From Candidatus Omnitrophota bacterium (GTDB lineage: Bacteria; Omnitrophota; Gorgyraeia; Gorgyraeales; Gorgyraeaceae): a stretch of DNA of 64,000 bases. This document shows positions 22,051 to 62,721 of the stretch, one piece after another (the first letter of the stretch is position 1; every line of letters begins with the position of its first letter). Below the pieces are notes generated by a model. That model did not search any database and was not told the origin of the DNA. It saw only the letters and a list, made by a program, of their open reading frames with translations. The stretch spans positions 4,858-68,857 of the forward strand of contig JBDRJN010000005.1 in the NCBI GenBank assembly GCA_043814965.1, in the 5' to 3' direction. Both the position numbers and the translations under genes were made by a program.

Positions 22051-23766
22051 TCATGAAAGACCAATCCAATCGTAATTAAGAAGATGGCGATATTTATTCT
22101 TTATCTGAATTTGAAACATCTTATACATCCTGTCCTCAGAGAATTTTGTATTCTGAACCATCTCCTTTGCATCCATCCAAAGACGCTTTTCGTCATAATC
22201 GCCAAAAGCACTAAATACAGGGCTAAGATCGCTTGTCACCTTAGACAAAACTAAATAAATATACGAAAAAACCTTTGCCTTTTCAACCTCTATTTTGCTC
22301 AATGACTTAAAAGTGTGTACATTTTTTAGGATCGAAAAATACTCGTCCTTTGTCTTTGGTTCATGGGTAAACCCCAAACCAGAATATATAGTTTCTCCGC
22401 CTATGACGCAAGGAATGCCAAAAACAGAATATTCATATCCAGCACTGCCATGCGTTGTCAATATAACATTCACTATAGATGGCAAAGAACCTGTATTAAC
22501 ATTTTCTGGAAAAAGCTTGATATGTTTACAATTTTTTGCCAACCTTTTATATTCTTTCTTCGCTGTTGTCTTAACATCATTTATCTCATCCCATGGATGG
22601 GGTTTTATTAACCAATTAACATGATCAAGGGCTTTAGCTTCCATTAACGTGACTCGAAGCCATGTTAATGGATCCTTGAATAAACTCCAGCTATTCGCAA
22701 ATACCACTTCTGTCATCATATTTGACATTACGCCAACAATAGGCCGATCAACATCCCATCCAAACCTGTCACATAACTCCTGACGTGAGATAACAGGATT
22801 CTCTTTTTTAAAAGCATCATAACTAACATCACTATCAATCTGTATATATTCTGACTTGAATCTTTTATTTATATATTTTCCGCCTGAACAAACTGCTTCT
22901 ATTCTATGACTCTGCCATACATATTCAAAAAGCTTGCGTTCAAACCTGCCAACATCTTTAAAAGCTCTATCTATACCTTTAAATCTACATACTGTAAAAC
23001 TCTTTGGCTTGCCGCCTCTAGAATACACTACGGTTCCATTTTTCAAAGCAACTTGATATACGATTGCTCCAGGCATAAACTGCCTATCAGATTGGATCAA
23101 AACAGGAAACGCGTTACAATCAAACAATTTTTTAAGATAATCCTGGTAGCATAGCGCTTCTCTCATATAACTAATAAAAACTGGCTGAATGCTGTCAGCT
23201 GTCCCGAAACCAGATGTTCTCAAATAAGTATCGTAAACTATCTTTCCTATATGGACATCTTCCAGCTTAAGATTCAAAAAATCATCAATATTTTTCAACT
23301 CTCCAAATATGTGTACAGCTTTAGAAGTATAGCGTATAAAATCCAGCGCACTATTATTTCTATCGCTCAGGTAGAAAAATTTACTAATACCGTAGGATTT
23401 GAATAAGAGTTCAAGCTTTCTGTCTCGTTTATGTAAAAGCGCTGCTCCTTGAATGCCATAAACATCCATAACATATCTTCCAATAATTAAATTCAGTAAA
23501 ACATACCCCATGTGATTGACAAGGCCTTCGATCAAAACATACTGTTGGCCATTTTTAATCACTTTTTTATCAACTTGCTGCCATAAAAAAGCATTGGTAT
23601 TCAAAAACTCCTGAAAAGCTTTTTCAATATCATCATTTTCTTTATCTGCTTTTGACAAAATATTAGGTCTGCTTTTAAGTTGTGCTATGCGTTTGGGTAG
23701 CGACATTAACAATAGAACAAAGTACTTAAACAGTAAGAAATAGGTTCTTAAATTATATTTAATCAT
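22051..23766 (-). CDS. GT-B-fold capsule/teichoic-type polysaccharide biosynthesis protein (KpsC/KpsS- or TagF-like). It is a candidate glycosyl- or nonulosonate-transferase
   Basis: C-terminal 'HVNWLIKPHPWDEIND...SIVNVILTTHGSAGYEYSVFGIPCVIGG' shows the HP catalytic motif and the SS/TT-x-gfE-x-G-P pattern shared by Capsule_synth and Glyphos_transf families. The precise family is uncertain. Confidence 0.4.
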   Translation of the reverse strand: MIKYNLRTYFLLFKYFVLLLMSLPKRIAQLKSRPNILSKADKENDDIEKAFQEFLNTNAFLWQQVDKKVIKNGQQYVLIEGLVNHMGYVLLNLIIGRYVMDVYGIQGAALLHKRDRKLELLFKSYGISKFFYLSDRNNSALDFIRYTSKAVHIFGELKNIDDFLNLKLEDVHIGKIVYDTYLRTSGFGTADSIQPVFISYMREALCYQDYLKKLFDCNAFPVLIQSDRQFMPGAIVYQVALKNGTVVYSRGGKPKSFTVCRFKGIDRAFKDVGRFERKLFEYVWQSHRIEAVCSGGKYINKRFKSEYIQIDSDVSYDAFKKENPVISRQELCDRFGWDVDRPIVGVMSNMMTEVVFANSWSLFKDPLTWLRVTLMEAKALDHVNWLIKPHPWDEINDVKTTAKKEYKRLAKNCKHIKLFPENVNTGSLPSIVNVILTTHGSAGYEYSVFGIPCVIGGETIYSGLGFTHEPKTKDEYFSILKNVHTFKSLSKIEVEKAKVFSYIYLVLSKVTSDLSPVFSAFGDYDEKRLWMDAKEMVQNTKFSEDRMYKMFQIQIKNKYRHLLNYDWIGLS

Positions 23767-25154
23767 GTCTGACGAAATCCTCTGAAGTTTAAGTTTTTTT
23801 CGTTATATAGTTTTTTGGCTTGTTCTGTGCACAATGACTGTCTTTTTTTAAAAAAATTGCCTATTAGCCTTGTATTTGCGTCCAATAGGCAAGAATAAAA
23901 TTCTGCATCGCTTAGATCTGTAAAATTCACTGTCAATAAATCAGAGTTTAGATGCTTATTTTCATAAAAATCTTCCACATCTTTTAATAATCCTTTTTCT
24001 ATAGCATAATAGTATAATGGACTGCCAGGATATGGAGTGACTGGCCTAATTGTCCTTAACTGAGAATCATCGCTATATCTCAGCAAAAATTCCAACCCTT
24101 TTTGTAAAGTTTCTTTTGTTTCACCAATATTTCCAAATATTATATTAAGGCCTGGGCTTATTCCAGAGTCAATTGTATTTCTCACTCCTTCATGAATAAT
24201 TTTAACCGTAAGCCCTTTTTTCATTATATCTAGGGCCTCTTGGTCCATAGATTCAATACCGTAATTAATAAACACGCAACCTGCTTTTTTCATCAATTTT
24301 AAAACTTTTGGTTTTGCAAAATTCAGCCTTCCATTGCAATCCCACCTGAATTTTACACCCGAATCAATTATCGCTTCGCATAATTCAATCGTTCTTTTTT
24401 CGGAACTCATTAAAAGATCGTCTGAAAATTCAATAGCTGAGATGTTATAGTCTTTTTGCAAAAGCTTAATTTCCTCTAAGATATTATCGGCACTCCTTGG
24501 CCTAAAACCTTTGTCCATCCTATAACAAAAATTACATTTAAAGATACATCCTCTTCCAGATAAAACAGGCATATGCCTATCGTTATTGGCAAAACCTTTT
24601 ACAGGCCTCATGAGCGCATAATGATCTATAGGAAACAGCTCATATGCTGGGAAATCTATGTCGTCAATATTTTGAATAAGCGGTCTTGGTAGGTTGATTA
24701 CACATTTCCCGGAATTATTATAAGCTATGCCCTTTATCAAAGAAAGATCTTTTCTGCTCTCCAGGGCTTCTACAATCTCAAGGATAGTTATCTCTCCTTC
24801 GCCAATAACTATCGCATCAGCTTGTGTTTTTTTCATAAAATAGCTAGGTTCAGGGGCTGAGCCATGGCCTCCTAGAATATAAAAAGGTCTGTTCTTTGAT
24901 TGATTGATGGCATCCGATAAAAGCAATAATTTTTTATACTGGTAATATCCGCCGATTATACTCAAGCCTACTATATCAAAATCCATATTGTTAAGATAAT
25001 TCTTTAGATGAAGCTCCGACCAGTGATAAACATCCTGGTTATATATTGTTACCTCATGCCCATTTTCTTTCAAAACCCTGGCAATATATGCAATACCCTG
25101 GGGAAAATATGACACAAGTGAATCATTATCATAAACGATCAGTAATATTTTCAT
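23763..25154 (-). CDS. Cobalamin-binding (class B) radical SAM enzyme
   Basis: An N-terminal B12-binding Rossmann fold 'KILLIVYDNDSLVSYFPQGIAYIARVLKENGHEVTIY' precedes the radical SAM CxxxCxxC motif 'SGRGCIFKCNFCY'. Confidence 0.8.
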   Translation of the reverse strand: MKILLIVYDNDSLVSYFPQGIAYIARVLKENGHEVTIYNQDVYHWSELHLKNYLNNMDFDIVGLSIIGGYYQYKKLLLLSDAINQSKNRPFYILGGHGSAPEPSYFMKKTQADAIVIGEGEITILEIVEALESRKDLSLIKGIAYNNSGKCVINLPRPLIQNIDDIDFPAYELFPIDHYALMRPVKGFANNDRHMPVLSGRGCIFKCNFCYRMDKGFRPRSADNILEEIKLLQKDYNISAIEFSDDLLMSSEKRTIELCEAIIDSGVKFRWDCNGRLNFAKPKVLKLMKKAGCVFINYGIESMDQEALDIMKKGLTVKIIHEGVRNTIDSGISPGLNIIFGNIGETKETLQKGLEFLLRYSDDSQLRTIRPVTPYPGSPLYYYAIEKGLLKDVEDFYENKHLNSDLLTVNFTDLSDAEFYSCLLDANTRLIGNFFKKRQSLCTEQAKKLYNEKNLNFRGFRQT

Positions 25155-25870
25155 TTGAGTGTTTTTTGTAAATCTGGAGATTTTTTATTAACTATAAATT
25201 CTGCGAATTTGAAATCCAGTTCATCGTCTATATCAAGTGATGGAATACGCCCCATTAAATAATAAGTAGTTTTCGGAGTATAAAAGGTTCTGTATTTTAA
25301 AAAATCTGAACATCTCATTATATAAATAGCTCCATTAACGATAAATAATTTCGATAAATCCTGCTGGCTAGAATCGGCAATAAACTCTTTCAAAAACCCG
25401 CTTGCCTGAATAGTTTTCGTCAAACAGGGATTTTTGTTTATCCTACCGATTGAAATTAATGATAGCGCTTTTTTAAAATTAACAAATTTTTTAATAGCTT
25501 TATCTAAATAGGCATGGTCTCTAAATGGAGAGGTAGGTTGTAACAGACAAAAAAAATCATACTGTTTGTTTTCCTTATTATTTAACCAATTAAGGGCATG
25601 AATAATAAACTCACTGCTTGGTGAAATGTCTGTCGCAAATTTAGCGGGTCTTTTAAATGGGACCTCAATATTATATTTTTTAGCTATAGAAACGACTTCG
25701 TCTGAATCCGTAGAAACAATTATTCTATCTATATATTCTGACTTCCTGGCCGCTTCTATAGTATATGCTATTAAAGGTCTACCTCCTAAGTCCCTCGTAT
25801 TCTTCCCAGTCACTCTTTTTGACCCTTTTCTTGCAGGGATCAAAGCTAACAATGTTTTTTTTCTATACAT
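25151..25870 (-). CDS. CMP-nonulosonic acid synthetase (acylneuraminate cytidylyltransferase family; NeuA/LegF/PseF-like)
   Basis: 'ALIPARKGSKRVTGKNTRDLGGRPLIAYTIEAARKSEYIDRIIVSTDSDEVVSIAKKYNIEV' matches the CTP_transf_3 N-terminus. The start was chosen at the internal ATG (MYRKK), which removes the overlap with the upstream gene. The six-frame ORF extends to 25960. Confidence 0.8.
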   Translation of the reverse strand: MYRKKTLLALIPARKGSKRVTGKNTRDLGGRPLIAYTIEAARKSEYIDRIIVSTDSDEVVSIAKKYNIEVPFKRPAKFATDISPSSEFIIHALNWLNNKENKQYDFFCLLQPTSPFRDHAYLDKAIKKFVNFKKALSLISIGRINKNPCLTKTIQASGFLKEFIADSSQQDLSKLFIVNGAIYIMRCSDFLKYRTFYTPKTTYYLMGRIPSLDIDDELDFKFAEFIVNKKSPDLQKTLK

Positions 25871-25895
25871 AGCAACCTGACGTCTGTTTAACTGA

Positions 25896-26957
25896 CTATA
25901 ACTTATTAAAGACTTTTTTGTACTCTTCCCATTGGCCAATATCCACGTAATCTCTTCCATTTATAGGGTACATCATGACTTTTTTATTGTTTTCTATAAG
26001 TTTTTTCACCAAATCTGTCATATCAAAATATGAATCTTTCGGTATAAACTGTAAGGATTCCTTGTTGAGTATGTAGACTCCGGCATTTACCGTAAAAGTG
26101 TACTCCGGCTTTTCTAAAATAGATTCGACTTCTCCGCCTTCCTTAAACTTTACTATCCCATAAGGAATTTTATAGTGCTGAATAGGGGATAAAATTGTCA
26201 TTACTGATCTCTGTTCTTTATGAAAACTCACCACGTCTTCAAAATCAGCTTTAACAATAACATCGCAATTAGAGACTATGAATAGATCTCCTATTTTGTT
26301 TTCTAAAAGCTTTAAACTACCTGCTGTTCCTAAAAATTCCTTTTCTACTAGATATTTAATCTCATAATCTCTTTCTATTCCATTAAAATATGACTTGATT
26401 ATCTCGCTTTTATGGTTTAACGTTATAAAATATTCATTGGCGCCCTGCTGTTTGAATTCCTCTATGATTATCTCGATGATAGGCTTATCGCCTATAGGGA
26501 TTAAGGGCTTAGGGAGGACCTTGGTAAATGGGTCTAACCTTGAACCTTTTCCACCTGCCATAATAACCACGGGTATATTGATCTTGCCATTATTGGTTAT
26601 TTTGGTTTTATCTTCAAAAAATACCTCGTTCCATGTAACAAAATCTACAACCTTATTTCCTTCATCTAATATTGGGAGTAAATCTATCCTATCCCTAATG
26701 AATATTTTTCTTACCAGATCTATTGAATAATTTTCTTTTTTGATATAATTAGGCTTCCTGTTATAGACTTCGCTGATATTGTTTTCCAAGCTTTTGCCGG
26801 TCAATATATAACGTCTGATATCCCCATCTGTTATAGTCCCCAATAATCTATTCTGGTCGTCTATCACCAGCAGAACTTTTTTCCCGCCTTCATTTAGACT
26901 TTTTAAAGCGTCTTTTATAGACTTTGATTGATAAATTAGAACATCCTTTTGGAACAT
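25896..26957 (-). CDS. CBS-domain nucleotidyltransferase (PtmE-like sugar-1-phosphate guanylyl/nucleotidyl-transferase)
   Basis: An N-terminal CBS pair 'LLGTITDGDIRRYIL' precedes the NTP_transferase motif 'VIMAGGKGSRLDPFTKVLPKPLIPIGDKPIIE'. Confidence 0.75.
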   Translation of the reverse strand: MFQKDVLIYQSKSIKDALKSLNEGGKKVLLVIDDQNRLLGTITDGDIRRYILTGKSLENNISEVYNRKPNYIKKENYSIDLVRKIFIRDRIDLLPILDEGNKVVDFVTWNEVFFEDKTKITNNGKINIPVVIMAGGKGSRLDPFTKVLPKPLIPIGDKPIIEIIIEEFKQQGANEYFITLNHKSEIIKSYFNGIERDYEIKYLVEKEFLGTAGSLKLLENKIGDLFIVSNCDVIVKADFEDVVSFHKEQRSVMTILSPIQHYKIPYGIVKFKEGGEVESILEKPEYTFTVNAGVYILNKESLQFIPKDSYFDMTDLVKKLIENNKKVMMYPINGRDYVDIGQWEEYKKVFNKL

Positions 26958-26959
26958 TT

Positions 26960-28138
26960 CTATCCTCTCTGTTTAAAGTCTATATCAAAAAAAGATTTTT
27001 TTAAACTATTGGGGACATCATACCTTTTTAATATATACTTGATTTTTTTTGCAGTATTGCCATTGCCATATGGGTTAGTTATGCTTTTAAGGGATCTTTT
27101 AAATTTTTTGGAATATATCCTTTTTATAGCTTTCCTTATATCTTCTTTTTGCGGTTTGCAATCTATAACGTTCTTCGCTTTAATCCTTCCCTTCTGTCTA
27201 TCCCCAATATTGACCGCTCCTATTTTGAAACTCGGGGCTTCTATAATAGCGCTGGATGAATTTCCGACTACAGCATCCATAAATCGCATTGTTGATAAAT
27301 ATAAGGTCTGGCCCATCGATGTAAACGCTTTAGCCTTATCTGGATTTTTAGACACATAATTATCTATCATTTTATTAATGATCCTGCCGTGGGTATCAGC
27401 ATTTGATCCTGTGAAAATTATATTTGTATCATTTAACTCATCTAGCGCAGCAATCAAGTTCTGGAATTGCTTGCCTGCTGTATCGTCTTCTAGAGTAACC
27501 GGATGAAAAGTAACTAACAAATTATGCTTATTCAACTTAAAACCTAATTTCGGCTCTAATGCTTTTCTGGTTAATAATTTCAGCTGCTTTATATTATCTA
27601 TTCCTATCGCTCCGACATTAAAAACTCTCTTAGGCGCTTCGCCTAATTGAATTATACGTTTTTTATACTTTTTAATGGCAGTAAAATGCAAATTACTCAT
27701 TTTAGTTATAGAATGTCTTATCGCCTCGTCAATGGCCCCAAAAGTAGCCTCACCTCCATATAAATGAGCTATAGGAATCCTTGAAACCATCGCTGCTATA
27801 ACTGCTGATAACATTTCAAATCTGTCTCCGATAATCACAATAATATCAGGTTTCAACCTATTATAAGCTTCACTTAAACTTATTAATCCTAATCCCATAG
27901 ACTTACTCAAACCTATAGGCGTATCAGAACTTAATAAGATCTCTATTTTTTCATTTATTTTAAAGCCATCTTTTTCCAACTCTTTATAAGTTAAATTAAA
28001 TTCCGGGGACATATGCATTCCAGAAACAATGAGCTGAAGCTGTAATTCTTTATCTTTTTTTATCTCATCCATTAAAGGCTTTAAAAGTCCGTATTCAGCC
28101 CTAGAACCTGTGAATATACAAATTTTTCTCTTCACCAT
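26960..28138 (-). CDS. UDP-N-acetylglucosamine 2-epimerase (hydrolysing), NeuC/LegG family
   Basis: 'KICIFTGSRAEYGLLKPLMDEIKKDKELQLQLIVSGMHMSPEFNLTY', 'IGDRFEMLSAVIAAM' and 'HLYGGEATFGAIDE'. Confidence 0.8.
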   Translation of the reverse strand: MVKRKICIFTGSRAEYGLLKPLMDEIKKDKELQLQLIVSGMHMSPEFNLTYKELEKDGFKINEKIEILLSSDTPIGLSKSMGLGLISLSEAYNRLKPDIIVIIGDRFEMLSAVIAAMVSRIPIAHLYGGEATFGAIDEAIRHSITKMSNLHFTAIKKYKKRIIQLGEAPKRVFNVGAIGIDNIKQLKLLTRKALEPKLGFKLNKHNLLVTFHPVTLEDDTAGKQFQNLIAALDELNDTNIIFTGSNADTHGRIINKMIDNYVSKNPDKAKAFTSMGQTLYLSTMRFMDAVVGNSSSAIIEAPSFKIGAVNIGDRQKGRIKAKNVIDCKPQKEDIRKAIKRIYSKKFKRSLKSITNPYGNGNTAKKIKYILKRYDVPNSLKKSFFDIDFKQRG

Positions 28139-28800
28139 GCCTCCTTTAGTATCATAAAGCTTTCCGCATACTTATATCCAGCTGTTGCTCCTCTGAATAT
28201 AGCTAAAGCTTTTATATTCTTCAGGCTTCTTGGAAATGGGTGCTGGTTAATTTCAGTCTTAAAAATTTTAATAATATCGATCTTTTTATCCAAATAATCA
28301 GTGATATCCACGAAATAATTAGGAATAAAAGCTATTTCTTTTAAGCTTGGAGCAAATTCAGTCTCGCTAATTATTTCCATCGCCAAAATTTTCTTAATGA
28401 ATGGGCAACGAAATTTCTTAGCAGAACTCCATGCTGCTTCAGAAATTATCCTATGATCACTATGTGTGTCCCCCATGAACGGCAAATAAAGTATATTTGG
28501 TTTGACTTGCTGCAAAATTTCTGAGATTTTTTTTATTACTTTATTTATAGGCCACCTCTCTACTTCTATTGTAGGAATTCCCAATTTATAAATACCATCG
28601 AAGCCATACTTTTTTGTGGCAATCTTTATTTCTCTTTCTCTTTGCAAAATCTTTTTTCTGCTAAAACCTTTCTTTTTCTTCATATCTGTGGCGATAAGCC
28701 AATAAACTTTGTCTCCATTCATCTTGTGCCTAAGTATTGTTCCGCCACAACCCAAAGTTTCATCATCAGGATGAACTGCTAATACTAAAACTTTATTCAT
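28132..28800 (-). CDS. PIG-L/LmbE-family N-acetyl-sugar deacetylase
   Basis: 'VLAVHPDDETLGCGGTIL' contains the HPDDE zinc motif. 'GDTHSDHRIISEAA' contains the second His motif. Confidence 0.7.
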   Translation of the reverse strand: MNKVLVLAVHPDDETLGCGGTILRHKMNGDKVYWLIATDMKKKKGFSRKKILQREREIKIATKKYGFDGIYKLGIPTIEVERWPINKVIKKISEILQQVKPNILYLPFMGDTHSDHRIISEAAWSSAKKFRCPFIKKILAMEIISETEFAPSLKEIAFIPNYFVDITDYLDKKIDIIKIFKTEINQHPFPRSLKNIKALAIFRGATAGYKYAESFMILKEAW

Positions 28801-29714
28801 AATAAATACTCCCCAATTTTTGGAAATTCATTAAATTCATGTTTTGTCAAAATAACTGCATTGTTATAACATTTCACTAGTATCTTATTATCGGTTATAT
28901 CCAACACCTTGCCGCTTTCGATATTATCTTGAGTTAACTCTACTTCTTTTGCTTCCCAAATCTTAATATTAACATCATTGTAAAAAATATGCGCCCCTAT
29001 ATATGGCTTTGTCAATGCTCTTACAAGATTATAAACCCCTCTGCTAGTCATTCTAAAATCTATCTTCCCGTCTTCCTCTCTTCTTTTCCGCCAAAAATTC
29101 GCTTTTGTATTGTCTTGGGAAATCCTGCAATAAGTCTTATTTTGTAGCTTTGGCAAAAAATCTCCCATTTGGGTTAAAGCTGTATTTGTAATCTTATTAT
29201 AGAGAGACTTTGCATTGTCTTCATAGGTTATATCTACATATTCTTGGCTTAAAAGATCTCCACCATCAATGCTATCATCTATAAAGAAAAACGTAGAAGC
29301 AGTTCTCTCTAGACCAAGGGCTAAGGCCCAAACAATAGGATGCCTGCCTCTGTTCTGAGGTAGGATTGCAGGATGAAATCCTACAATCCCCATCGGTGCG
29401 CTATATATAATTTCTTTTTTTAAGATCTGTGAAAATCCAAAACAGAAAATTATGTCCGGACTTAACTTTCTAATCCATTCTATATTATCCTGAGAATTGA
29501 TATCGGTAACATATCTGCAGGGAATACCCTTATGGCTACAAAGATCCGACAAATCTGAAAAATCGGCGTTAAAGTCAGATTTTTCTTTGGTTAACACCCC
29601 GACAACATTTGCCTTATAGAATATCAATTGTTTCAGCATGCTTTCACCGAATTTAACTGTTCCTATAAAAACTATTCTCATTAGTTTATTTTTCAAAACA
29701 TGATTTTTCGGCAT
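28797..29714 (-). CDS. Formyltransferase (Fmt/ArnA-N-like). It probably acts as a sugar N-formyltransferase using N10-formyl-THF
   Basis: 'MRIVFIGTVKFGESMLKQLI', 'IIFCFGFSQILKKEI' and 'VGFHPAILPQNRGRHPIVWAL' (the HxSLLPxxRG-type catalytic loop). Confidence 0.7.
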   Translation of the reverse strand: MPKNHVLKNKLMRIVFIGTVKFGESMLKQLIFYKANVVGVLTKEKSDFNADFSDLSDLCSHKGIPCRYVTDINSQDNIEWIRKLSPDIIFCFGFSQILKKEIIYSAPMGIVGFHPAILPQNRGRHPIVWALALGLERTASTFFFIDDSIDGGDLLSQEYVDITYEDNAKSLYNKITNTALTQMGDFLPKLQNKTYCRISQDNTKANFWRKRREEDGKIDFRMTSRGVYNLVRALTKPYIGAHIFYNDVNIKIWEAKEVELTQDNIESGKVLDITDNKILVKCYNNAVILTKHEFNEFPKIGEYLL

Positions 29715-30376
29715 TTTTTAATAGAAGACGCAAAATTTTTGTACACTATCAAACCGCATGGGCCGCTTCGCTCTGGATGAAATTGAAAAGCATGAATATT
29801 GCGATAGTGTATACTTGAACAAAATTCAATATCACCGTATCCTGACATTGTTAAGCACATGCCATGATTCTCTGGTATAACATAATACGAATGGACAAAG
29901 TACATAAACTCGCCGTTTTTTATCCCTTTTAAAAGTAATTCTTCGAATGGTTTATTGCTTAAATCTTTATTTGCTTTATATATCTGATTCCAGCCAACAT
30001 GAGGAACTTTCAGCTGTGTTTCTATATCGTTAACTGGCCTGTTGAAACGAACTGTTTTTCCATTTATGATTCCCAATCCTTCATGATGCCCAAACTCAAA
30101 GCTTTCTGACATTAAAAGCTGCATCCCAAGACATATGCCCATAAAAGGCTTGGATAATGCAGCTTCTTTTAATGCTTCTACTAAACCCAGTCTTCTAATA
30201 TTTTTCATTGCATCACCGAAAGCGCCCACCCCAGGCAAAATAACAGCGTCTGCAGAGTTAATATCATCTACTGACGAGGTAATTAGCCCTTCCATTCCGC
30301 TGTTTTCGCAGGCGTTTTTAACGCTGAATAGATTTCCCATACCATAATTCACAATAGCAACTCTCGGATCACTCAT
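29693..30376 (-). CDS. Glutamine amidotransferase, HisH paralogue (imidazole glycerol phosphate synthase subunit-like)
   Basis: 'VAIVNYGMGNLFSVKNACENSG', 'GICLGMQLL' (catalytic Cys) and 'HSYYV' / 'FHPE' (His-Glu). Confidence 0.8.
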   Translation of the reverse strand: MSDPRVAIVNYGMGNLFSVKNACENSGMEGLITSSVDDINSADAVILPGVGAFGDAMKNIRRLGLVEALKEAALSKPFMGICLGMQLLMSESFEFGHHEGLGIINGKTVRFNRPVNDIETQLKVPHVGWNQIYKANKDLSNKPFEELLLKGIKNGEFMYFVHSYYVIPENHGMCLTMSGYGDIEFCSSIHYRNIHAFQFHPERSGPCGLIVYKNFASSIKKCRKIMF

Positions 30377-31287
30377 TTTTCATTCTCTATGCTTTCCTGC
30401 ATCATATATCCGCATTTTATTCCATGTCTGGCCAAATATTTTTTGATTTCTATAGGTGTTATTTTTTGGATATTTACTGACTCCTGCCTTTTTTTAAAAA
30501 ACTCTATATTTCCCTCGCTTGAAAAATCATCTTCAAAATCATATTGTTCAATAAAAGCATAATGAAGCATGGAAGCTACGCTTACAGCATCTGCTTTTCC
30601 TTTAACTATCACATCTCTGATATGATCAAAATTTCCTGCGCCGCCACAGGCTATAACTGGGATTTGTACGGATCTTGAGATCTTCTGTGTTAATTCCAGA
30701 TCAAATCCACAGGCCGTGCCTTCCATGTCGATCGATGTAATCAATATCTCGCCTGCTCCTAATTTTTCTACATGCAATGCCCATTCAAAAGCATCAACAC
30801 CAGTCTGTTCTCGTCCGTTTTCGATATACGCCTCATAGGAACCGTCGGCTTTTCGCTTGGCTTCAATAGATACTGTAATTGTTGAAGAACCGAATTTTCT
30901 AGCAGCTTCTTTTATAAATTCTGGTTTTCGGATTGCGATTGTATTCAAAGAGACTTTGTCTGCCCCAGCTTGTAAAACAGTTTCTATGTCTCCTAGGTTC
31001 CTTAAACCACCTCCAACTGTTAAAGGTATAAAAATTTCCTTTGAAGTCTTTTTGATAATATCTAACAAGTTGTTTCGTCCATAGAGACTGGCGACTATAT
31101 CCATATATAAAAGTTCATCTGCGCCATTCTCATAATAATACCGCGCGAAACGCTCTGGTTTACCCATGACTCGTAACCCTTCTAGATTTACCCCCTTTAC
31201 AAGGTTTGGCCCTTTAATATCCAACCGTGGTATAAGTCTGATGTATTGTGGCATTTTGATCACGACACCTGCTGTTTCAGTTTCCAT
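30373..31287 (-). CDS. HisF paralogue (imidazole glycerol phosphate synthase cyclase subunit-like)
   Basis: 'RLIPRLDIKGPNLVKGVNLEGLRVMGKPERFARYYYENGADEL' and 'IPLTVGGGLRNLGDIETVLQAGADKVSLNT'. Confidence 0.8.
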   Translation of the reverse strand: METETAGVVIKMPQYIRLIPRLDIKGPNLVKGVNLEGLRVMGKPERFARYYYENGADELLYMDIVASLYGRNNLLDIIKKTSKEIFIPLTVGGGLRNLGDIETVLQAGADKVSLNTIAIRKPEFIKEAARKFGSSTITVSIEAKRKADGSYEAYIENGREQTGVDAFEWALHVEKLGAGEILITSIDMEGTACGFDLELTQKISRSVQIPVIACGGAGNFDHIRDVIVKGKADAVSVASMLHYAFIEQYDFEDDFSSEGNIEFFKKRQESVNIQKITPIEIKKYLARHGIKCGYMMQESIENEK

Positions 31288-32396
31288 TCATCTTTTTGTT
31301 TTTTCCATATATGAGGTAGCCTAAAACCATCTATTACTTTCCAGAAGTGCTCTTCTGTAATATCCATATATTCCAGGCATTCTTTGAAGTGTTTCTTGGG
31401 GAACTCGCCGTCATACTTCTTTACAAGAGCAACTCCTTCTTCTCTTGTTAAATGCCCGTCTCTTATTTCATGAGCTGCGTCAGATGTGGCTCGTCCAATA
31501 CCAAACTTTATGAACGCCAGATAGTAATGTATACCATCCAGGCGATCATCAAGGCTAGCATATTTTGAATATGTGCCTTCGGAACGTGTAAGATTGGGCC
31601 TAAATCCAGTATATTTGCATGCATAATAATAATTCTCTTGTGGTATCCATTTTGTATAATAAGCAAAATAACGGTAATCAACCTTTACTTTTTCAAGCTC
31701 TGCCTGATCTGGTAGCATATAACATTGCAAATCACTTAACTTCATGCCATATTTTGTCCAGTATTCAGGCGCAAAGCCAGAAAAATATGTCGGAGTCATA
31801 TCGTTAGAGACATTGATCGTAGACTTATCAGCATTTCTAGTTTCGCCACCGTATTCCACCTCCCCGTCTTCAGCATACATAACAAGAGGAATTCTATACT
31901 TCACAGCAATATGGAGGGGGAATGCCTTTACCCCATAAATAAATGGCTGAAAAGGATCTCCCATTTTTTCGAAGGCTAACCTGGTAACCTGCCTATGGAT
32001 TTTTCCATCTGGATTCATAAAAATGTTATCAAATCCGGATTTAATGAAATTATCGTAATTCTGTTTTCCTATATCCGTATAAATATGCGGCGAAAATGTC
32101 ACAGTTAGAGGATGCATGCCATATTTATGCTTGAGTTGATGTGCTATATATGCACTATCTTTGCCGCCACTGCACGGCACCACAACATCATAAGAACCAT
32201 CTTTTCTTCTATATTTATCTAAAAGTTCGCAGAGCTCATCTTTTCGTTTTGCCCAATCGGTATATTCTTTTTTTCTCTCAGCATGCTGGCAAGCGCTACA
32301 AACACCTTTTTCATCAAATGTAATCCTAGGTCTTTGATTAGAAATTACACATTTTGTACAATAAAGTACTTCTGTTCCATTGATGGTTTTAGTCAT
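31260..32396 (-). CDS. N-acetyl sugar amidotransferase (WbpG/WbuX/PseA-like PP-loop ATP pyrophosphatase)
   Basis: An N-terminal Cys pair 'CTKCVISNQRPRITFDEKGVCSAC' precedes the PP-loop 'VVVPCSGGKDSAYIAHQL'. Confidence 0.75.
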   Translation of the reverse strand: MTKTINGTEVLYCTKCVISNQRPRITFDEKGVCSACQHAERKKEYTDWAKRKDELCELLDKYRRKDGSYDVVVPCSGGKDSAYIAHQLKHKYGMHPLTVTFSPHIYTDIGKQNYDNFIKSGFDNIFMNPDGKIHRQVTRLAFEKMGDPFQPFIYGVKAFPLHIAVKYRIPLVMYAEDGEVEYGGETRNADKSTINVSNDMTPTYFSGFAPEYWTKYGMKLSDLQCYMLPDQAELEKVKVDYRYFAYYTKWIPQENYYYACKYTGFRPNLTRSEGTYSKYASLDDRLDGIHYYLAFIKFGIGRATSDAAHEIRDGHLTREEGVALVKKYDGEFPKKHFKECLEYMDITEEHFWKVIDGFRLPHIWKKQKDEWKLKQQVS

Positions 32397-32423
32397 TTTA
32401 TCTCTCCGTTCAGACTCTAAAAG

Positions 32424-33194
32424 TTACAGATTTATCTTAATAAAAGCCCATGGTTGTAAAATATACCCGTTGACTTGCCAATCGCCTATCATCTTTGTTG
32501 TGTTTTGCAGACTACCTCTTTTAAAATCCTTAGAGATACTTTTTGGATCAAAATCATTATCCGCTATGATTTCCCATTTTCTGATTCCAGGTAACCTAGA
32601 TAACATATGATCAATATAAGCTTTACTATAAATATTATAATAATTAAAACTTTTGGGTGAGCCATCTTTTTTAAATTCATCACCCATTCCTCGGACCTCT
32701 TTAATCCTAAAAGAGCGCTCACCGATAAGCGTTCTGATAAGAACATGTCTCCGGGAGACACGGCAGAGTTCCCTGAGCGGTTTCTCGATTGACGGCAGGT
32801 GAAGAAGAACATTATTCGACATCACTATTTCAAAAGATTTATTTTTAAATGGCAATTGGTAAATATTCCCTCTATAAAAAGCCACTCTTTTTAAACCTGA
32901 AAATACTTTTTTGGCTAATCTAATATATAAAGAACTATTATCAATGCCTGTATAGAAAAAATTACAGGTTATGCGATTTTTTATACTCTTTAGATAATGC
33001 CCTACTCCGCAACCAACATCAAGGATACTGTCGCCCTCATTAATCCATCCCGATATTATCTTTGCGGTTGCCTTGCTGCTTTCCATTTCAGGAAGTTCAC
33101 CTTTAGCGCGTTTATATAACACCTTGGAGTATTTTTCATTTTTATTTTTTCCCCAACCAGCACCATTATTCCAATCCTTAGTATAAATATTCAT
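32424..33194 (-). CDS. Class I SAM-dependent methyltransferase
   Basis: 'ILDVGCGVGHYLKSI', 'GIDNSSLYIRLAKK' and 'FEIVMSNNVLLHL'. Confidence 0.65.
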   Translation of the reverse strand: MNIYTKDWNNGAGWGKNKNEKYSKVLYKRAKGELPEMESSKATAKIISGWINEGDSILDVGCGVGHYLKSIKNRITCNFFYTGIDNSSLYIRLAKKVFSGLKRVAFYRGNIYQLPFKNKSFEIVMSNNVLLHLPSIEKPLRELCRVSRRHVLIRTLIGERSFRIKEVRGMGDEFKKDGSPKSFNYYNIYSKAYIDHMLSRLPGIRKWEIIADNDFDPKSISKDFKRGSLQNTTKMIGDWQVNGYILQPWAFIKINL

Positions 33195-33220
33195 ATTTTT
33201 GGTTTCTTTGTATACTGTGT

Positions 33221-34228
33221 TTATATTTCCAACAATTCATCTTCTTTAAAGTTTCTTTTTGCGTACGTGCCAATAACTCTATGCCACATCATTGGACTTA
33301 TGCCAGTGCCAGGCCTTTTAACAGTTATATCATCTTCTCTTATTTTATCTCCTTTTTCTATATTTCTTGATGCTACTATGCTTTTTCTGACAATAGGCTT
33401 GTTTTTGCCTTCTGAAGATGATATCTTTTTTATGCCATCGCCCATAGCTTTTTCAATATTCCTTATAGCCTCCACCATAGTCTCAAATTCATGCGGTTCC
33501 AATGATGCTCTATGGTCAGGACCCTTCATGGTTTTATCTAACGTAAAATGTTTTTCTATAACTCTTGCACCTAATGCTGCTGCTGCAATTGCTATTTCAA
33601 TACCAGCAGTATGATCAGAATAACCCACCTTTATCCCAAAAACATCTCTTATTGTAAGCATAGCCCTTAGATTTACATCTTTAATAGGAGTAGGATATTC
33701 CGTATTGCAATGTAGTATGGTTATGTTTTCTTTTAGCGTCCCGGCTTTTATTAAAATATCAAGCGCGCATTTTATATCCTCCAGATCTGACATCCCTGTT
33801 GACATTATAATCTTTTTATTCAACATCCCTAGTTTTATTAAATATGGGTAATTCGTTATTTCTCCCGAAGGAATTTTAAAAATTTTAAGCCCAAGCTTGA
33901 CAAGTACATCTATGCTCCCCAAGTCAAAAGGCGACGAAAGAAATAGAATACCTTTTTCCTTACAATAAGTCAAAAGCTTTATATGTGTATCTATATCTAT
34001 CTCTAATTTTTTTAGCATCTCGAGTTGGGATTCAGAAACCTTGCTTACTGTTCTTTTTTGATATTGTGCTTTAGGTGCAAAACTACTCGCAACTTTCTCT
34101 GCTATAAAAGATTGGAATTTTATAGCATCAGCTCCACATGATGCTGCTATTTTTATCATCTGTTTTGCCGTTGCAATATTTCCGTTATGGTTAACACCTG
34201 CTTCTGCTATAACAAAAACCTTATTCAT
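33221..34228 (-). CDS. Nonulosonic acid synthase (N-acetylneuraminate synthase family; NeuB/LegI/PseI-like) with C-terminal SAF domain
   Basis: 'MNKVFVIAEAGVNHNGNIATAKQMIKIAASCGADAIKFQSF' and a C-terminal SAF region 'IVASRNIEKGDKIREDDITVKRPGTGISP'. The start was taken at the internal ATG. The six-frame ORF extends to 34261. Confidence 0.85.
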   Translation of the reverse strand: MNKVFVIAEAGVNHNGNIATAKQMIKIAASCGADAIKFQSFIAEKVASSFAPKAQYQKRTVSKVSESQLEMLKKLEIDIDTHIKLLTYCKEKGILFLSSPFDLGSIDVLVKLGLKIFKIPSGEITNYPYLIKLGMLNKKIIMSTGMSDLEDIKCALDILIKAGTLKENITILHCNTEYPTPIKDVNLRAMLTIRDVFGIKVGYSDHTAGIEIAIAAAALGARVIEKHFTLDKTMKGPDHRASLEPHEFETMVEAIRNIEKAMGDGIKKISSSEGKNKPIVRKSIVASRNIEKGDKIREDDITVKRPGTGISPMMWHRVIGTYAKRNFKEDELLEI

Positions 34229-34886
34229 TTCTGACCAGCCTCTTTGCAGGAAGACCAGCATAAACCCCGCCGCCTATACCGATAGATGCTACAACAACCG
34301 AACCAGCCCCTATTACAGTATCTTCTGCTATCTTTATATTGTTCAATACCACAGCATTGCTTCCAACAAGCGTTCTTCCCCCTATAGAACAATCACCATT
34401 TATGACACTACCTGTCGAGATATGGCAGTGATCCTCTATTCTTGTGTCATGTTCTATAATAGCTCCTGTATTAATAATGCAATTTTTCCCTATATTTGCT
34501 TCAGAATTTATAAAGGCTTTATGCATTATAATCGCTCCTTCTTCTATAAAAGCTCTTTTCGATACATAAGCCAAAGGCGAGATAATTACAGGAAATTCTG
34601 CTCCTAGATTTTTCAGATATTCAAATCTTTTTTTTCTTTTGCTTCCACCTCTTATCTGGCCTATTGTTACCAAGAAATATCTATACTGTTTCACCAATTT
34701 TGGCAAATCCTCATCACTGGCTATTATTTCATACCCTGATACTTTTTGGTGCGATTTTTCTTTAAAATCTACTATTCCGGCTATCTTAAACTTATCTTCT
34801 TTTTCAATGACATCTATACATGCTTTACAATGTCCACCTCCGCCAAGCAAGACAATATTTTTCTTCATTTTTCTATTTATCCTCAT
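34221..34886 (-). CDS. NeuD/PglD/LegH-family hexapeptide N-acetyltransferase
   Basis: A Rossmann-like N-terminus 'KKNIVLLGGGGHCKACIDVI' precedes LbH repeats 'IGKNCIINTGAIIEHDTRIEDHCHISTGSVINGDCSIGGRTLVGSNAVV'. Confidence 0.7.
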   Translation of the reverse strand: MRINRKMKKNIVLLGGGGHCKACIDVIEKEDKFKIAGIVDFKEKSHQKVSGYEIIASDEDLPKLVKQYRYFLVTIGQIRGGSKRKKRFEYLKNLGAEFPVIISPLAYVSKRAFIEEGAIIMHKAFINSEANIGKNCIINTGAIIEHDTRIEDHCHISTGSVINGDCSIGGRTLVGSNAVVLNNIKIAEDTVIGAGSVVVASIGIGGGVYAGLPAKRLVRNE

Positions 34887-35980
34887 ATTAAATTTTTTAG
34901 CGTTTTACAAATACAATGTATGTCTTTTTTATTGTTAAGCGTAGAACCAGGCAAGCACAATCCTCTTTCGTAAATATGCTCAGCATTTTTATAAACTGTT
35001 TTTTTGTATTTTTTATACAATGGGAGCCTAGTTACTGGCATAAAAACCCTTCTTGTAGGTATTTTTTTTTCATTCAACTTTTTTTGCAAAGATACTATAT
35101 CTACTTTGTTTTTAAAAATAATACATGGCAGCCACCATGAACTGCTTGCCCCATCGTATTCCTGCTGAAAATTAATAAATCTTATACCTTTCAATTCCTC
35201 TTTATATATATTATTGAAGTTCATTTTTTTCTCTAAAAAAGAATCTAGCCTCTCTATCTGAGCCAATCCTAGAGCAGCCTCTATATTCGTCATTCTATAG
35301 TTAAAACCTATTTCTGGATAATGATATTCCCTGGATTCGTCTCTGCCCTGATTTACTAGAAATTTTATGTGATCTAATCTTCTCTCATCACTCCCAACTA
35401 CCATACCACCACCACCAGTAGTAATAACCTTGTTCCCGTTAAAACTAAAACATCCCAAATCTCCAAATGTCCCAGTATATCTATCGTTATACCTAGCTCC
35501 CAGACTTTCTGTTGCATCTTCTATTACATAAAGACCATTTTCTTTTGCTAAATTTATTATTGTATCCATTTCGCAAGGATTACCATAAAGATGAACAGGT
35601 ATTATTGCCTTTGTCTTTTTGGTTATTTTTTTTCTAATCTCTTGAGGAGAGATGTTCCAAGTTTTAGCATCTACATCGACAAAAACAGGCTTTGCTCCAA
35701 CATAAATAATAGGGTTTACCGTAGCAACAAATGTTAAAGCTGGGACAATAACTTCGTCATCTTTACCTATACCAAGTTCATATAACGCGACATGAAGCGC
35801 TGAAGTTCCACTTTGAGTTGAAACACCTTTTTTACCTCCGATATAGGCAACAAATTTTTCTTCGAATTGACTCACGAATGGGCCAACAGTAGAGACATAA
35901 CCCGTTGCCAACGCCTTATTGATATATTTTCTTTCACACTTTCCGACGTTTGGAGCATCAAGAAATATCTTGTTAGACAT
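34883..35980 (-). CDS. DegT-family PLP-dependent aminotransferase (LegC/PglE-like)
   Basis: 'LGCFSFNGNKVITTGGGGMV' (PLP lysine) and 'KPVFVDVD'. Confidence 0.8.
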   Translation of the reverse strand: MSNKIFLDAPNVGKCERKYINKALATGYVSTVGPFVSQFEEKFVAYIGGKKGVSTQSGTSALHVALYELGIGKDDEVIVPALTFVATVNPIIYVGAKPVFVDVDAKTWNISPQEIRKKITKKTKAIIPVHLYGNPCEMDTIINLAKENGLYVIEDATESLGARYNDRYTGTFGDLGCFSFNGNKVITTGGGGMVVGSDERRLDHIKFLVNQGRDESREYHYPEIGFNYRMTNIEAALGLAQIERLDSFLEKKMNFNNIYKEELKGIRFINFQQEYDGASSSWWLPCIIFKNKVDIVSLQKKLNEKKIPTRRVFMPVTRLPLYKKYKKTVYKNAEHIYERGLCLPGSTLNNKKDIHCICKTLKNLI

Positions 35981-36971
35981 TGTAAATATCCGGTTTATAT
36001 AACGTTAGAATATCCATCTTTTTAAACCATCCAATAGTCTCTTTTAAGCCTTTATCCAAAAAATACTCTTCTTTCCAGTCAGTAAGCTTTTTTATTTTCT
36101 CATTGCTACCAACTAATCGTTTTACTTCGCTTTTTTCTGGCCTTATCCTTAAGGTATCATGTGCAATTTTTGCCTTAGGATTTATGATATTTATAATTTT
36201 TGCTGCAAGATCACCTATTGATATCTCTCCTTGGGTCGCGATATTGATTTCTTCGCCTATTGTTTTATCTGATTTCGCTATTTGTATAAATCCGCTTACA
36301 GTGTCTCTAACAAAGGTAAAATCGCGCGTAGGATACAGCGAACCGAGTTTTATTTCTTTTTTTCCGGACAAAAGTTGTATTATGATAGATGGTATTATAG
36401 CTCTGGCTGACTGTCTGGGGCCATATGTATTAAATGGCCTCACTATAGTAACAGGTATTCCAAAAGAGCGGTAAAAAGACTCGGCTATCCTATCAGCAGC
36501 TATTTTCGTAGCGCTATAGGGTGATTGTCCCTGGAATGGATGTTCTTCATCGATAGGTATATATTTTGCTGTTCCATACACTTCAGAAGTAGATGTCACT
36601 AATACCTTTGAAGTGCCTAACTCACGCGCAGCTTGTAATATGTTCAGGGTGCCTTTTATATTTGTATCTACGTACGAATCTGGCGAATGATAAGAAAATG
36701 GTATACCTATTAAAGCAGCCAGATGAAAGACAACGTCAACCCCAGCCATAGCTTTTTTAACACCGTTTGGGTCCCTGATATCTCCGGTAAATACAGTTAT
36801 TTTCTTTAGTTTTTCCATGGAAAAATAATCAAGCCACCCCCAAGAATTAGAAAAGTTATAGTAACAAAAGGCTATTACCTTGCATTTGTGATCCAATAAA
36901 GATTCAACTAAATGGCTTCCTATAAACCCATCCGCCCCAGTAACTAAAACTGTTTTGTTTTTTAAGTTCAT
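35973..36971 (-). CDS. Extended-SDR NAD-dependent nucleotide-sugar 4,6-dehydratase (LegB-like)
   Basis: 'KTVLVTGADGFIGSHLVESL' (GxxGxxG), the catalytic 'YSATK' and the family-specific 'YYNFSNSWGWLD'. Confidence 0.65.
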   Translation of the reverse strand: MNLKNKTVLVTGADGFIGSHLVESLLDHKCKVIAFCYYNFSNSWGWLDYFSMEKLKKITVFTGDIRDPNGVKKAMAGVDVVFHLAALIGIPFSYHSPDSYVDTNIKGTLNILQAARELGTSKVLVTSTSEVYGTAKYIPIDEEHPFQGQSPYSATKIAADRIAESFYRSFGIPVTIVRPFNTYGPRQSARAIIPSIIIQLLSGKKEIKLGSLYPTRDFTFVRDTVSGFIQIAKSDKTIGEEINIATQGEISIGDLAAKIINIINPKAKIAHDTLRIRPEKSEVKRLVGSNEKIKKLTDWKEEYFLDKGLKETIGWFKKMDILTLYKPDIYNV

Positions 36972-38301: not shown

Positions 38302-40674
<2,373 letters not shown>

Positions 40675-57830: not shown

Positions 57831-57835
57831 TCGAT

Positions 57836-58744: not shown

Positions 58745-58799
58745 AGATAGTTATGATATCTTATTTCAGGTATGATTGCAAGAGGAAATTTAGAACATC

Positions 58800-58841
58800 T
58801 TTCTTCCGTAGGGGAGCCTTAAGGCTCCCCTACGGAAGAAA
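58800..58841. repeat. Perfect 42-nt palindrome 'TTTCTTCCGTAGGGGAGCC-TTAA-GGCTCCCCTACGGAAGAAA'
   Basis: A 19-bp perfect stem with a TTAA centre. It shares the core CGTAGGnGAnCC-TTAA-GGnTCnCCTACG with the 48614-48651 palindrome. It lies between the GGDEF gene stop and the ROK kinase start. Confidence 0.75.
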
Positions 58842-58875
58842 AACAAGGAAGAAAAACAAGTAGGCAAGGCTGACT

Positions 58876-61558: not shown

Positions 61559-61589
61559 CCGGGAACCATTTTCTGGTAAAAAAACTAAC

Positions 61590-62705: not shown

Positions 62706-62721
62706 TCTCTTATAAGATTTA

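Follow-up and report, generated by a model that had tools for sequence, protein, structure and literature searches.

A predicted operon for a multiply tailored legionaminic acid in an Omnitrophota bacterium

How phage, host and immune system recognize the surfaces of bacteria and archaea depends to a large extent on nonulosonic acids, whose chemical diversity is still being catalogued. Which of these sugars is made, how it is decorated and to what it is handed on are the questions raised by a dense run of genes at positions 23763-36971 of a 64,000-nucleotide stretch of DNA from a Candidatus Omnitrophota bacterium (assembly GCA_043814965.1, contig JBDRJN010000005.1, positions 4,858 to 68,857), hereafter called the window. 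The reading that we favor, with a probability of about 0.7, is that this block is a translationally coupled operon for a cytidine monophosphate (CMP)-activated, multiply tailored legionaminic acid (Leg), which would be handed to a dedicated transferase within a surface polysaccharide locus dependent on an ATP-binding cassette (ABC) transporter. Parts of this picture are already known, namely acetamidino formation with methylation in Campylobacter and Legionella, deacetylation with formylation in Kuenenia (a preprint), formylation in Halorubrum and ABC-exported Leg polymers in Legionella. New is the stacking of all decoration modules in one operon, so that acetamidino, formyl or free-amine and methyl decorations can be combined in this way. 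Also new are a KpsC-like family of candidate nonulosonate transferases, predicted from sequence, and a family of radical S-adenosylmethionine (SAM) enzymes, here called rSAM1, which is a conserved component of Leg clusters in both prokaryotic domains and for which we found no published function.

The operon and its core enzymes

The whole window is transcribed from the minus strand, on which every gene mentioned below lies, and its GC content varies between 0.31 and 0.43. The range 23763-36971 runs from the start codon of the dehydratase gene (LegB) to the stop codon of the radical SAM gene and holds 14 open reading frames (ORFs) in the ORF list, with no gap of more than 27 nt; neighboring ORFs often overlap by 4-8 nt, and 4-nt overlaps of the ATGA type are common. 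The frequent overlaps and the short gaps argue for a translationally coupled operon, and the finding that 14 consecutive genes belong to one pathway rules out a chance pattern. An earlier note on this DNA, made by eye, had counted thirteen collinear genes. The collinearity and the gene order stand, but the count is 14, that is, the thirteen plus the B12-binding radical SAM gene (23763-25154), while the gene of a protein with a glycosyltransferase B (GT-B) fold (22051-23766) falls just outside the range. The gene identities were all reproduced, in the order described, by profile searches with Pfam (E 0.001 for window proteins) and NCBIfam (1e-5), and the seven-enzyme core announced as complete is present in full by these families.

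The core enzymes were assigned by homology. LegB (35973..36971), an NAD-dependent 4,6-dehydratase of nucleoside diphosphate (NDP)-activated N-acetylglucosamine (GlcNAc), scores 499.7 bits with TIGR04180 (cut-off 475) and carries the Pfam domains GDP_Man_Dehyd/Epimerase. The aminotransferase that follows (34883..35980; DegT_DnrJ_EryC1, 374.6 bits) is a pyridoxal phosphate enzyme of the LegC family, whose best match, TIGR04181 at 416.5 bits, stands 139 bits above the PseC model (277) yet 3.5 bits short of its cut-off of 420. The LegH role falls, as a family-level assignment, to a NeuD/PglD-type hexapeptide N-acetyltransferase (34221..34886; PglD_N and Hexapep), which scores 208.9 bits with TIGR03570, the NeuD/PglB/VioB family (cut-off 160.8). 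The nonulosonate synthase NeuB/LegI (33221..34261), with NeuB and SAF domains, reaches 488.7 bits with TIGR03569 (cut-off 399.65), and its nearest relatives in the PDB are SpsE, NeuB and PseI, at about 175 bits each. Beyond the tailoring genes lie the hydrolysing NDP-sugar 2-epimerase NeuC/LegG (26960..28138; TIGR03568 499.7 bits, cut-off 235.9; WecB model 94.9 bits) and a sugar-1-phosphate nucleotidylyltransferase (25896..26957) with the CBS (40.6 bits) plus NTP_transferase (139.7 bits) architecture of PtmE, as had been claimed; this PtmE-like protein passed no NCBIfam equivalog model. The last core gene encodes the CMP-nonulosonate synthetase in the NeuA/LegF role (25151..25960), with a CTP_transf_3 match of 78.5 bits (cut-off 22.6) that begins at residue 39; the true start probably lies about 30-37 codons inside the ORF. 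The models specific for pseudaminic acid (Pse) all stayed below their cut-offs: PseB at 84 bits (407.75), PseC at 277 (423.5), PseI at 281 (340.25) and PseF at 160.8 (205.7). With the Leg-specific models as best matches and the Pse models failing, a backbone of the legionaminic type is predicted; of the "legionaminic/pseudaminic-type" pathway proposed earlier, the first half thus stands and the second falls. In its core, then, the operon encodes a Leg pathway of the ordinary kind.

Radical SAM family, tailoring genes and candidate transferase

The gene that closes the block (23763-25154) encodes rSAM1. A radical SAM enzyme with a B12-binding domain had been announced at this place, and both Pfam domains are indeed above cut-off (B12-binding PF02310, 46.3 bits against 32.1; Radical_SAM PF04055, 73.5 bits). 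The motif C203-x3-C207-x2-C210 is present and its cysteines are invariant in the family alignment. The model of rSAM1 (AF2, pLDDT 89.8) is matched about equally by MgmA, TsrM, AprD4, OxsB, CysS and TokK in Foldseek (E 1e-16 to 1e-22). With TsrM, MgmA/QCMT, CysS, TokK, OxsB and AprD4 it shares an N-terminal Rossmann-like domain of the B12-binding type and a CX3CX2C core; it differs from them in its place in nonulosonate clusters, a context that is not among the functions of the class listed in a 2026 review, where no sugar or polysaccharide function is given (PMC12931638). Matches to named subfamilies (BchE, HpnJ, PhpK, HpnR, AprD4 and others), 19 in NCBIfam, were all far below cut-off, the best being BchE with 136 bits (cut-off 481); the AprD4 model gave 76 (cut-off 500). 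The names BchE (Mg-protoporphyrin IX monomethyl ester cyclase) and YgiQ carried by homologues were rejected, because the scores (136 vs 481 and 31.6 vs 462) fall far short of the cut-offs and the genomic setting is one of sugar biosynthesis. Full-text literature searches returned nothing linking radical SAM enzymes with nonulosonic, legionaminic or pseudaminic acids, and nothing relevant joining legionaminic acid with cobalamin, B12-binding or C-methyltransferase. Besides the motif, C273 and C293 are invariant and C259 nearly invariant in the family, and C273 and C293 are also kept in the second radical SAM protein of the window; these three residues could be ligands of an auxiliary Fe-S cluster or of another metal.

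Conservation of rSAM1 is unusually high, with homologues 63-70% identical among the best 120 database matches. Scanning a collection that represents each GTDB species by one genome gave 80 rSAM1 loci (58-67% identity), the best 80 of about 4,500 homologues; these were searched with all window proteins, and the co-occurrence counts given here refer to them. The hosts belong to Firmicutes, Nitrospirota, Desulfobacterota, Beta- and Alphaproteobacteria, Planctomycetota (including Brocadiaceae), Omnitrophota, groups of the candidate phyla radiation (CPR) and Archaea. The archaeal ones (Woesearchaeota, Methanomicrobiaceae and Methanolobus; loci L025, L041, L054 and L077) have orthologues of 61-64% identity, as close as the bacterial orthologues, which argues for gene transfer between the domains, mostly together with homologues of NeuB, LegC and NeuA. 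A homologue of NeuB, NeuC or NeuA occurs in 58 of the 80 loci, and in 33 of the 37 that are flanked by at least 8 kb on both sides; the four exceptions still have LegB/LegC/PtmE, HisF/HisH or Leg accessory genes of the usual kinds. When the neighbors in the 80 loci were clustered de novo, the families found most often were NeuA in 53, PtmE in 41, NeuC in 40, NeuB in 39, LegC in 38 and LegB in 37, and the commonest immediate neighbors of rSAM1 are NeuA (20/80), PtmE (18/80) and WbuX (8/80). Many loci hold the full seven-gene Leg set plus rSAM1, which therefore adds to the pathway and replaces none of its steps. No constant partner gene of rSAM1, such as an AprD3-like reductase, was found across the 80 loci. 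Outside the core and acetamidino genes, the commonest neighbors are GFO/MocA-like proteins (17/80), short-chain dehydrogenases/reductases (SDR; 16/80), Maf-like proteins (16/80) and class III aminotransferases (12/80); since the Maf-like protein of 774 aa accompanies rSAM1 in 16 loci, the Firmicutes sugar probably decorates flagellin. The hosts range from Firmicutes to methanogens and include the culturable Acetivibrio cellulolyticus (L007), Desulfoscipio geothermicus DSM 3669 (L015) and Wukongibacter baidiensis DY30321 (L011), as well as the cultured Desulfosporosinus sp. Tol-M (L027).

Two side observations concern single rSAM1 loci. In a metagenome-assembled genome (MAG) of the anammox family Brocadiaceae (L034), a relative of Ca. 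Kuenenia, NeuA is directly followed by an rSAM1 orthologue. The clusters L007 (A. cellulolyticus), L012 and L058 are without LegC and PtmE and have a GmhA-like SIS_2 protein beside NeuB/NeuC; that of A. cellulolyticus also has a HAD phosphatase and adjoins flagellar genes. Such clusters could represent a heptose-derived route to a longer-chain ulosonic acid.

The remaining genes of the block are predicted to tailor the sugar and, as the earlier note had it, are all nested between NeuB and NeuC: a class I methyltransferase, the WbuX/HisF/HisH triad, a formyltransferase and a PIG-L deacetylase. They are assigned to the nonulosonate because of this nesting and because the same modules recur in other Leg clusters. 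The WbuX-family N-acetyl-sugar amidotransferase (31260..32396), which would convert acetamido to acetamidino groups, has no Pfam match and scores 368.3 bits with TIGR03573 (cut-off 203.2). Its gene is adjacent to and overlaps with those of its two partners, the HisF-like protein (30373-31287), the putative ammonia channel, with 278.3 bits in WbuZ TIGR03572 (cut-off 299.7) and 226 bits in Pfam His_biosynth, and the HisH-like glutaminase (29693-30376), with 199.4 bits in TIGR01855 (cut-off 105.4). Homologues of the triad occur in 21-22 of the 80 loci, in Leg clusters every time. An ArnA/Fmt-type N-formyltransferase follows (28797..29714; Formyl_trans_N 83.5 bits, Formyl_trans_C 63.6 bits), whose nearest solved structures are Fmt and the formyltransferase domain of ArnA, and then a de-N-acetylase of the PIG-L/LmbE family (28132..28800; PIG-L 84.3 bits), which in the PDB is closest to diacetylchitobiose deacetylase and LmbE-related proteins. 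PIG-L homologues were found in 5 of the 80 loci, within Leg clusters, and the two genes form an adjacent pair in the Leg clusters of Wukongibacter (L011) and of a Desulfobacula MAG (L087), with 52-57% identity in the formyltransferase. No locus among the 80 has the complete set of modules. Therefore, the unusual combination pointed out earlier holds for the full set, but not for the single modules, each of which recurs in Leg clusters elsewhere.

The gene order of the Desulfobacula cluster, LegB-LegC-NeuD-NeuB-NeuC-Fmt-PIGL-PtmE-NeuA-rSAM, resembles that of the window minus an insert of methyltransferase, WbuX, HisF and HisH. Two side observations were made in this part of the block. The GC content is 0.39 over WbuX/HisF (30001-32000), against about 0.34 on either side, and the only true intergenic gaps of the block (26 and 27 nt) flank the class I methyltransferase; relative to the order of the Desulfobacula type, both fit an inserted methyltransferase-WbuX-HisF-HisH module.

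The class I SAM methyltransferase itself (32424..33194; Pfam Methyltransf_31/25/11) belongs to a distinct family, with 45-68% identity among homologues, and all three homologue contexts examined are NeuB clusters. One of these contexts (L089) also has an adjacent WbuX (71% identity), Wzm/Wzt and a PF05159-type protein; in the other two, WbuX is absent within 7 kb. In TIGR03587, the only methylase model associated with Pse/Leg, the protein reaches 36 bits, against a cut-off of 112. The idea that an N-methyl-acetimidoyl group is formed thus finds no specific support: given this low score and the Leg clusters without WbuX, we regard the enzyme as a putative nonulosonate methyltransferase acting on an O or N atom, and not as an amidine N-methylase of the PtmH type. 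A tblastn search of 88 loci (L001-L088) with this protein gave similarity of the SAM-binding fold only and no orthologues, and a metagenome scan gave only three distant, uninformative relatives.

The last gene to be considered with the operon encodes the 571-aa GT-B protein (22051-23766), a divergent member of the KpsC/KpsS-type (PF05159) superfamily. It has no Pfam match at E 0.001 and no NCBIfam match at 1e-5, and PF05159 itself reaches 17.7 bits (cut-off 20) over residues 381-473, a stretch in which the profile aligns a C-terminal motif common to the protein and KpsC. The homologues P0018 (29.2 bits) and P0022 (30.6 bits) do pass this cut-off, and the model (AF2, pLDDT 90.7) has a GT-B fold closest to KpsC. 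Inside the PF05159-matching stretch, H390-P391 is invariant in 36 homologues; a His-Pro motif contacts CMP in GT99/GT107 enzymes and in sialyltransferases. The protein differs from the retaining beta-Kdo transferases KpsC/KpsS and WbbB (GT107/GT99, PF05159; Kdo, 3-deoxy-D-manno-oct-2-ulosonic acid) in being only 11-14% identical to them, in having one GT module only, preceded by a helical/hydrophobic extension of about 65 aa, and in being tied genomically to NeuB and not to Kdo genes. A database search gave 41 homologues, all from MAGs or metagenomes, and each of the four independent homologue contexts examined (46%, 42%, 47% and 29% identity; Omnitrophota, a 1.3-Mb contig, another MAG and a Tara Oceans scaffold) has a synthase of the NeuB family no more than 10 kb away. 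By the fold, the invariant pair, the shared motif and the nearby NeuB, the earlier note's description as a KpsC/TagF-like GT-B protein and candidate transferase of the nonulosonate is well supported as a hypothesis. To our knowledge, few CMP-nonulosonate transferases have been described, and the relatives of this protein make up a candidate family of them. As to its start, the database entry P0001 (535 aa) begins 36 codons downstream of the start of the longest ORF; the homologues have lengths of 557-588 aa, and with the longer start the protein gains a hydrophobic segment near its N-terminus (residues 9-23). For both reasons the longer start is more likely, and the protein may be membrane-anchored.

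Proposed route and alternative readings

The order of the proposed route was inferred from the characterised Campylobacter pathway, and its tailoring steps from family chemistry and from their recurrence in other Leg clusters. The PtmE-like enzyme would convert GlcNAc-1-phosphate to NDP-GlcNAc, probably guanosine diphosphate (GDP)-GlcNAc, on which LegB would carry out the 4,6-dehydration, LegC the transamination at C4 and the NeuD/PglD-type enzyme the N-acetylation of the new amine. NeuC/LegG would then remove the nucleotide and epimerise C2, NeuB/LegI would condense the product with phosphoenolpyruvate, and NeuA/LegF would form CMP-Leg5Ac7Ac. Tailoring is expected at the level of the CMP-nucleotide sugar, as in the Campylobacter and Kuenenia work. 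WbuX, with ammonia from HisH/HisF, may turn one N-acetyl group into acetimidoyl; PIG-L may strip the other, and the Fmt/ArnA-type enzyme may formylate the resulting amine from N10-formyl-tetrahydrofolate, part of the pool possibly being left free. The class I methyltransferase would place a methyl group on an O or N atom, and rSAM1 would perform a radical step, for which C-methylation of an unactivated carbon is most likely because of the architecture with a B12-binding domain. Finally, the KpsC-like GT-B protein would transfer the finished sugar from CMP to a glycan built in the cytoplasm by the neighboring GT4/GT2 enzymes, maybe as a terminal residue, and the Wzm/Wzt and Wza/Wzi proteins would export the polymer. 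KpsC/WbbB-type enzymes can add terminal residues, and the Wzt of the locus has a weak Wzt_C domain; it may therefore be speculated that the nonulosonate is a chain-terminating cap that is read by the transporter.

Several points weigh against this reading. The organism is uncultured and all assignments of function are predicted. LegC (416.5 vs 420) and WbuZ (278.3 vs 299.7) are just below their cut-offs, the profile models do not separate LegI from NeuB, LegG from NeuC or LegF from NeuA, and the nucleotide chosen by the PtmE-like enzyme cannot be read from its sequence, the supply of GDP-GlcNAc being probable by analogy. The acetimidoyl group may sit on N5 and the formyl group on N7 or the reverse, and the modifications may be spread over more than one molecule. 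The 571-aa protein is below the PF05159 cut-off, and both its donor and its acceptor are predicted. Lastly, AprD4, the solved protein nearest to rSAM1 by sequence and the best by TM-score, is a radical SAM diol dehydratase that works on an aminoglycoside and has no bound cobalamin, and methylation by rSAM1 is therefore not assured.

As to the backbone, the block might instead make N-acetylneuraminic acid (Neu5Ac) by NeuC, NeuB and NeuA, the dehydratase, aminotransferase and acetyltransferase trio making an unrelated sugar of the bacillosamine type. TIGR03569 and TIGR03568 are indeed named for sialic acid enzymes, but they do not separate Neu from Leg; LegB passes the cut-off of a Leg-specific hypothetical-equivalog model and LegC misses its own by 3.5 bits, a PtmE-type nucleotidyltransferase is present, and the seven core genes are contiguous and co-occur as a set in many loci (for example L010, L013, L015, L019, L021, L063, L065, L079), all of which makes this alternative very improbable. 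We consider it extremely improbable that the product is a derivative of pseudaminic acid, a reading to which the PseF model, as the best NCBIfam match of the CMP-synthetase (160.8 bits), and the weak match of the methyltransferase to the Pse-associated methylase model (36 bits) would lend some color: the PseB, PseC, PseI and PseF models are all below cut-off, the block showed neither a PseH-like (GNAT) nor a PseG-like gene, and the hydrolysing 2-epimerase belongs to Leg/Neu routes and not to Pse routes.

The decorations leave more room for other explanations. Some or all of the tailoring genes may act on other amino sugars of the polysaccharide, such as a FucNAm-type sugar or a 4-formamido-6-deoxyhexose. 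Since these genes are nested between NeuB and NeuC and translationally coupled to both, since the same modules recur specifically in Leg clusters of unrelated phyla, and since formyl and free-amine CMP-nonulosonates were measured in Kuenenia, an organism whose Leg cluster has a deacetylase and a formyltransferase, we hold this to be improbable. For rSAM1, a non-methylating radical reaction on a Leg intermediate, AprD4-like or other (dehydration/deoxygenation, epimerisation or rearrangement), is possible, though doubtful. Against its AprD4-like form counts that Leg5Ac7Ac lacks the vicinal diol which such a reaction would need. AprD4 (6fd2) is the best match in the PDB by sequence (E 7.6e-16) and by TM-score (0.73/0.75), it acts on an amino sugar, and it does so without cobalamin despite its Rossmann-like N-terminal domain (PMC12931638); moreover, the three further conserved cysteines of rSAM1 could bind an auxiliary cluster. 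Nevertheless, the sequence match is limited to the radical SAM core (residues 199-409), the B12-binding domain of rSAM1 is above the Pfam cut-off (46.3 vs 32.1), and the methylases MgmA, TsrM, CysS and TokK match its model at equal Foldseek E-values.

Among radical SAM enzymes with B12-binding domains, C-methylation is the most frequent reaction. The boldest proposal that we would attach to rSAM1, and one unlikely to hold in full, is that it is a dedicated nonulosonate family, spread over both prokaryotic domains, that C-methylates legionaminic acid or its CMP ester in a cobalamin-dependent manner. If this were true, and if the terminal C9 methyl or another carbon of the backbone received the methyl group, a ten-carbon ulosonic acid would result. 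Mass spectrometry has revealed higher-carbon (ten-carbon) ulosonic acids of unexplained origin in Magnetospirillum gryphiswaldense and Methanococcus (PMC8157484; bioRxiv 10.64898/2026.04.20.719630). The proposal would give them an enzymatic origin and might also cover the CMP-nonulosonates of Ca. Kuenenia with an extra 14 Da, which the authors read as O-methylation (bioRxiv 10.64898/2026.04.20.719630). The question raised is which radical modification anaerobes add to nonulosonic acids, and whether it is linked to the ten-carbon ulosonic acids.

Previous studies offer partial parallels. In Campylobacter, CMP-Leg5Ac7Ac is formed first and then tailored, PtmG giving CMP-Leg5Am7Ac and PtmH methylating, and the leg-ptm flagellin locus of C. 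jejuni/coli shares with the window the seven-enzyme route with a CBS-nucleotidyltransferase, an amidotransferase of the WbuX/PtmG type and a methyltransferase (PMC3766260). In the window, by contrast, the amidotransferase has dedicated HisH/HisF partners, the methyltransferase, set beside PtmH through TIGR03587 only, fails that model, there are in addition a deacetylase/formyltransferase pair and a radical SAM enzyme, and the predicted acceptor is an ABC-exported polysaccharide served by a KpsC-like transferase instead of flagellin served by Maf proteins. Closer in setting is the lipopolysaccharide locus of Legionella pneumophila serogroup 1, where the Leg genes adjoin wzm/wzt, which are combined with a Leg homopolymer (a poly-legionaminic acid O-chain), and where a PtmG homologue (Leg5Am7Ac) and a methyltransferase for N-methylation occur; no formyltransferase, PIG-L protein or radical SAM enzyme is mentioned for it in the part of the source drawn on here (PMC3766260). 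There are no Legionella proteins among the 41 homologues of the 571-aa transferase, and the many GT4/GT2 enzymes of the window locus suggest a heteropolymer, unlike the homopolymer of Legionella.

The deacetylase and formyltransferase pair has its counterpart among the leg genes of Ca. Kuenenia stuttgartiensis, for which the SugarBase preprint reports CMP-nonulosonates in which one amine is free and the other N-formylated, as well as species of +14 Da; as these were measured as CMP sugars, tailoring there takes place at the nucleotide-sugar stage (bioRxiv 10.64898/2026.04.20.719630). The pairs are likened by description; an acetamidino triad is not mentioned for that cluster, and the word 'radical' occurs nowhere in the paper. 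In Halorubrum sp. PV6, a predicted formyltransferase gene is co-transcribed with legB/C/F/G/I and 5-N-formyl-Leg is found on the S-layer glycoprotein; this differs from the window in being archaeal N-glycosylation, a deacetylase is mentioned nowhere in the paper, and the passages used name no amidotransferase or radical SAM enzyme (PMC6137143).

The surrounding polysaccharide locus

The Leg block is the center of an ABC-transporter (Wzm/Wzt) polysaccharide locus of about 55 kb. The exporter genes are directly upstream of the sugar operon: the ABC ATPase Wzt (36973-38295; ABC_tran 87.9 bits; Wzt_C 23.9 bits, below the cut-off of 30.4; TagH/Wzt-type models in NCBIfam) and the ABC-2 permease Wzm (38302-39132; ABC2_membrane 80.3 bits). 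Further upstream lie an SDR, a helix-turn-helix (HTH) protein, a 210-aa ORF, a second B12-binding radical SAM gene, a Wza-like protein of 951 aa with SLBB repeats, Wzi and nucleotide-sugar enzymes. The second radical SAM gene (41353-42783), between the Wza-like gene and the ABC transporter, encodes a protein 27% identical to rSAM1 and is not an orthologue of the nonulosonate-linked family; beside it are the 210-aa ORF, which has no Pfam match (40724-41356), and the HTH protein, of the HTH_24 type (40060-40674).

Downstream of the 571-aa protein, a hexapeptide O-acetyltransferase of the WbbJ/Mac type by Pfam and NCBIfam (21291-21980) and two methyltransferases with Methyltransf_23/11 matches (20390-21268 and 19511-20389) may add further decorations, with the nonulosonate as a putative target; a homologue of the third methyltransferase of the locus occurs in L004 (37% identity). 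This side of the locus also has an FrhB-like/pyruvyltransferase fusion, a GDSL esterase, GT4/GT2 glycosyltransferases, two PMT_2 proteins and a trio of amine oxidase, GNAT and DegT proteins. The fusion (17021-19504; 827 aa) joins two 4Fe-4S ferredoxin motifs and FrhB_N/FrhB_C domains (F420 hydrogenase beta-like) to a polysaccharide pyruvyltransferase and may carry out a redox-linked ketal-pyruvate modification. At 6144-11841, an amine-oxidase-like flavoprotein, a GNAT acetyltransferase and a second DegT aminotransferase are encoded between the two PMT_2 membrane proteins (GT-C, ArnT/PMT-like), an arrangement that points to another unusual amino sugar and to a transfer step in the periplasm. 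At the other end, beyond the locus (55644-63567), are a 728-aa protein without Pfam match, a ROK-family kinase, two GGDEF diguanylate cyclases (one with GAF), a MalK-type ABC ATPase and AccD; the diguanylate cyclases adjoining the locus may regulate production of the polysaccharide.

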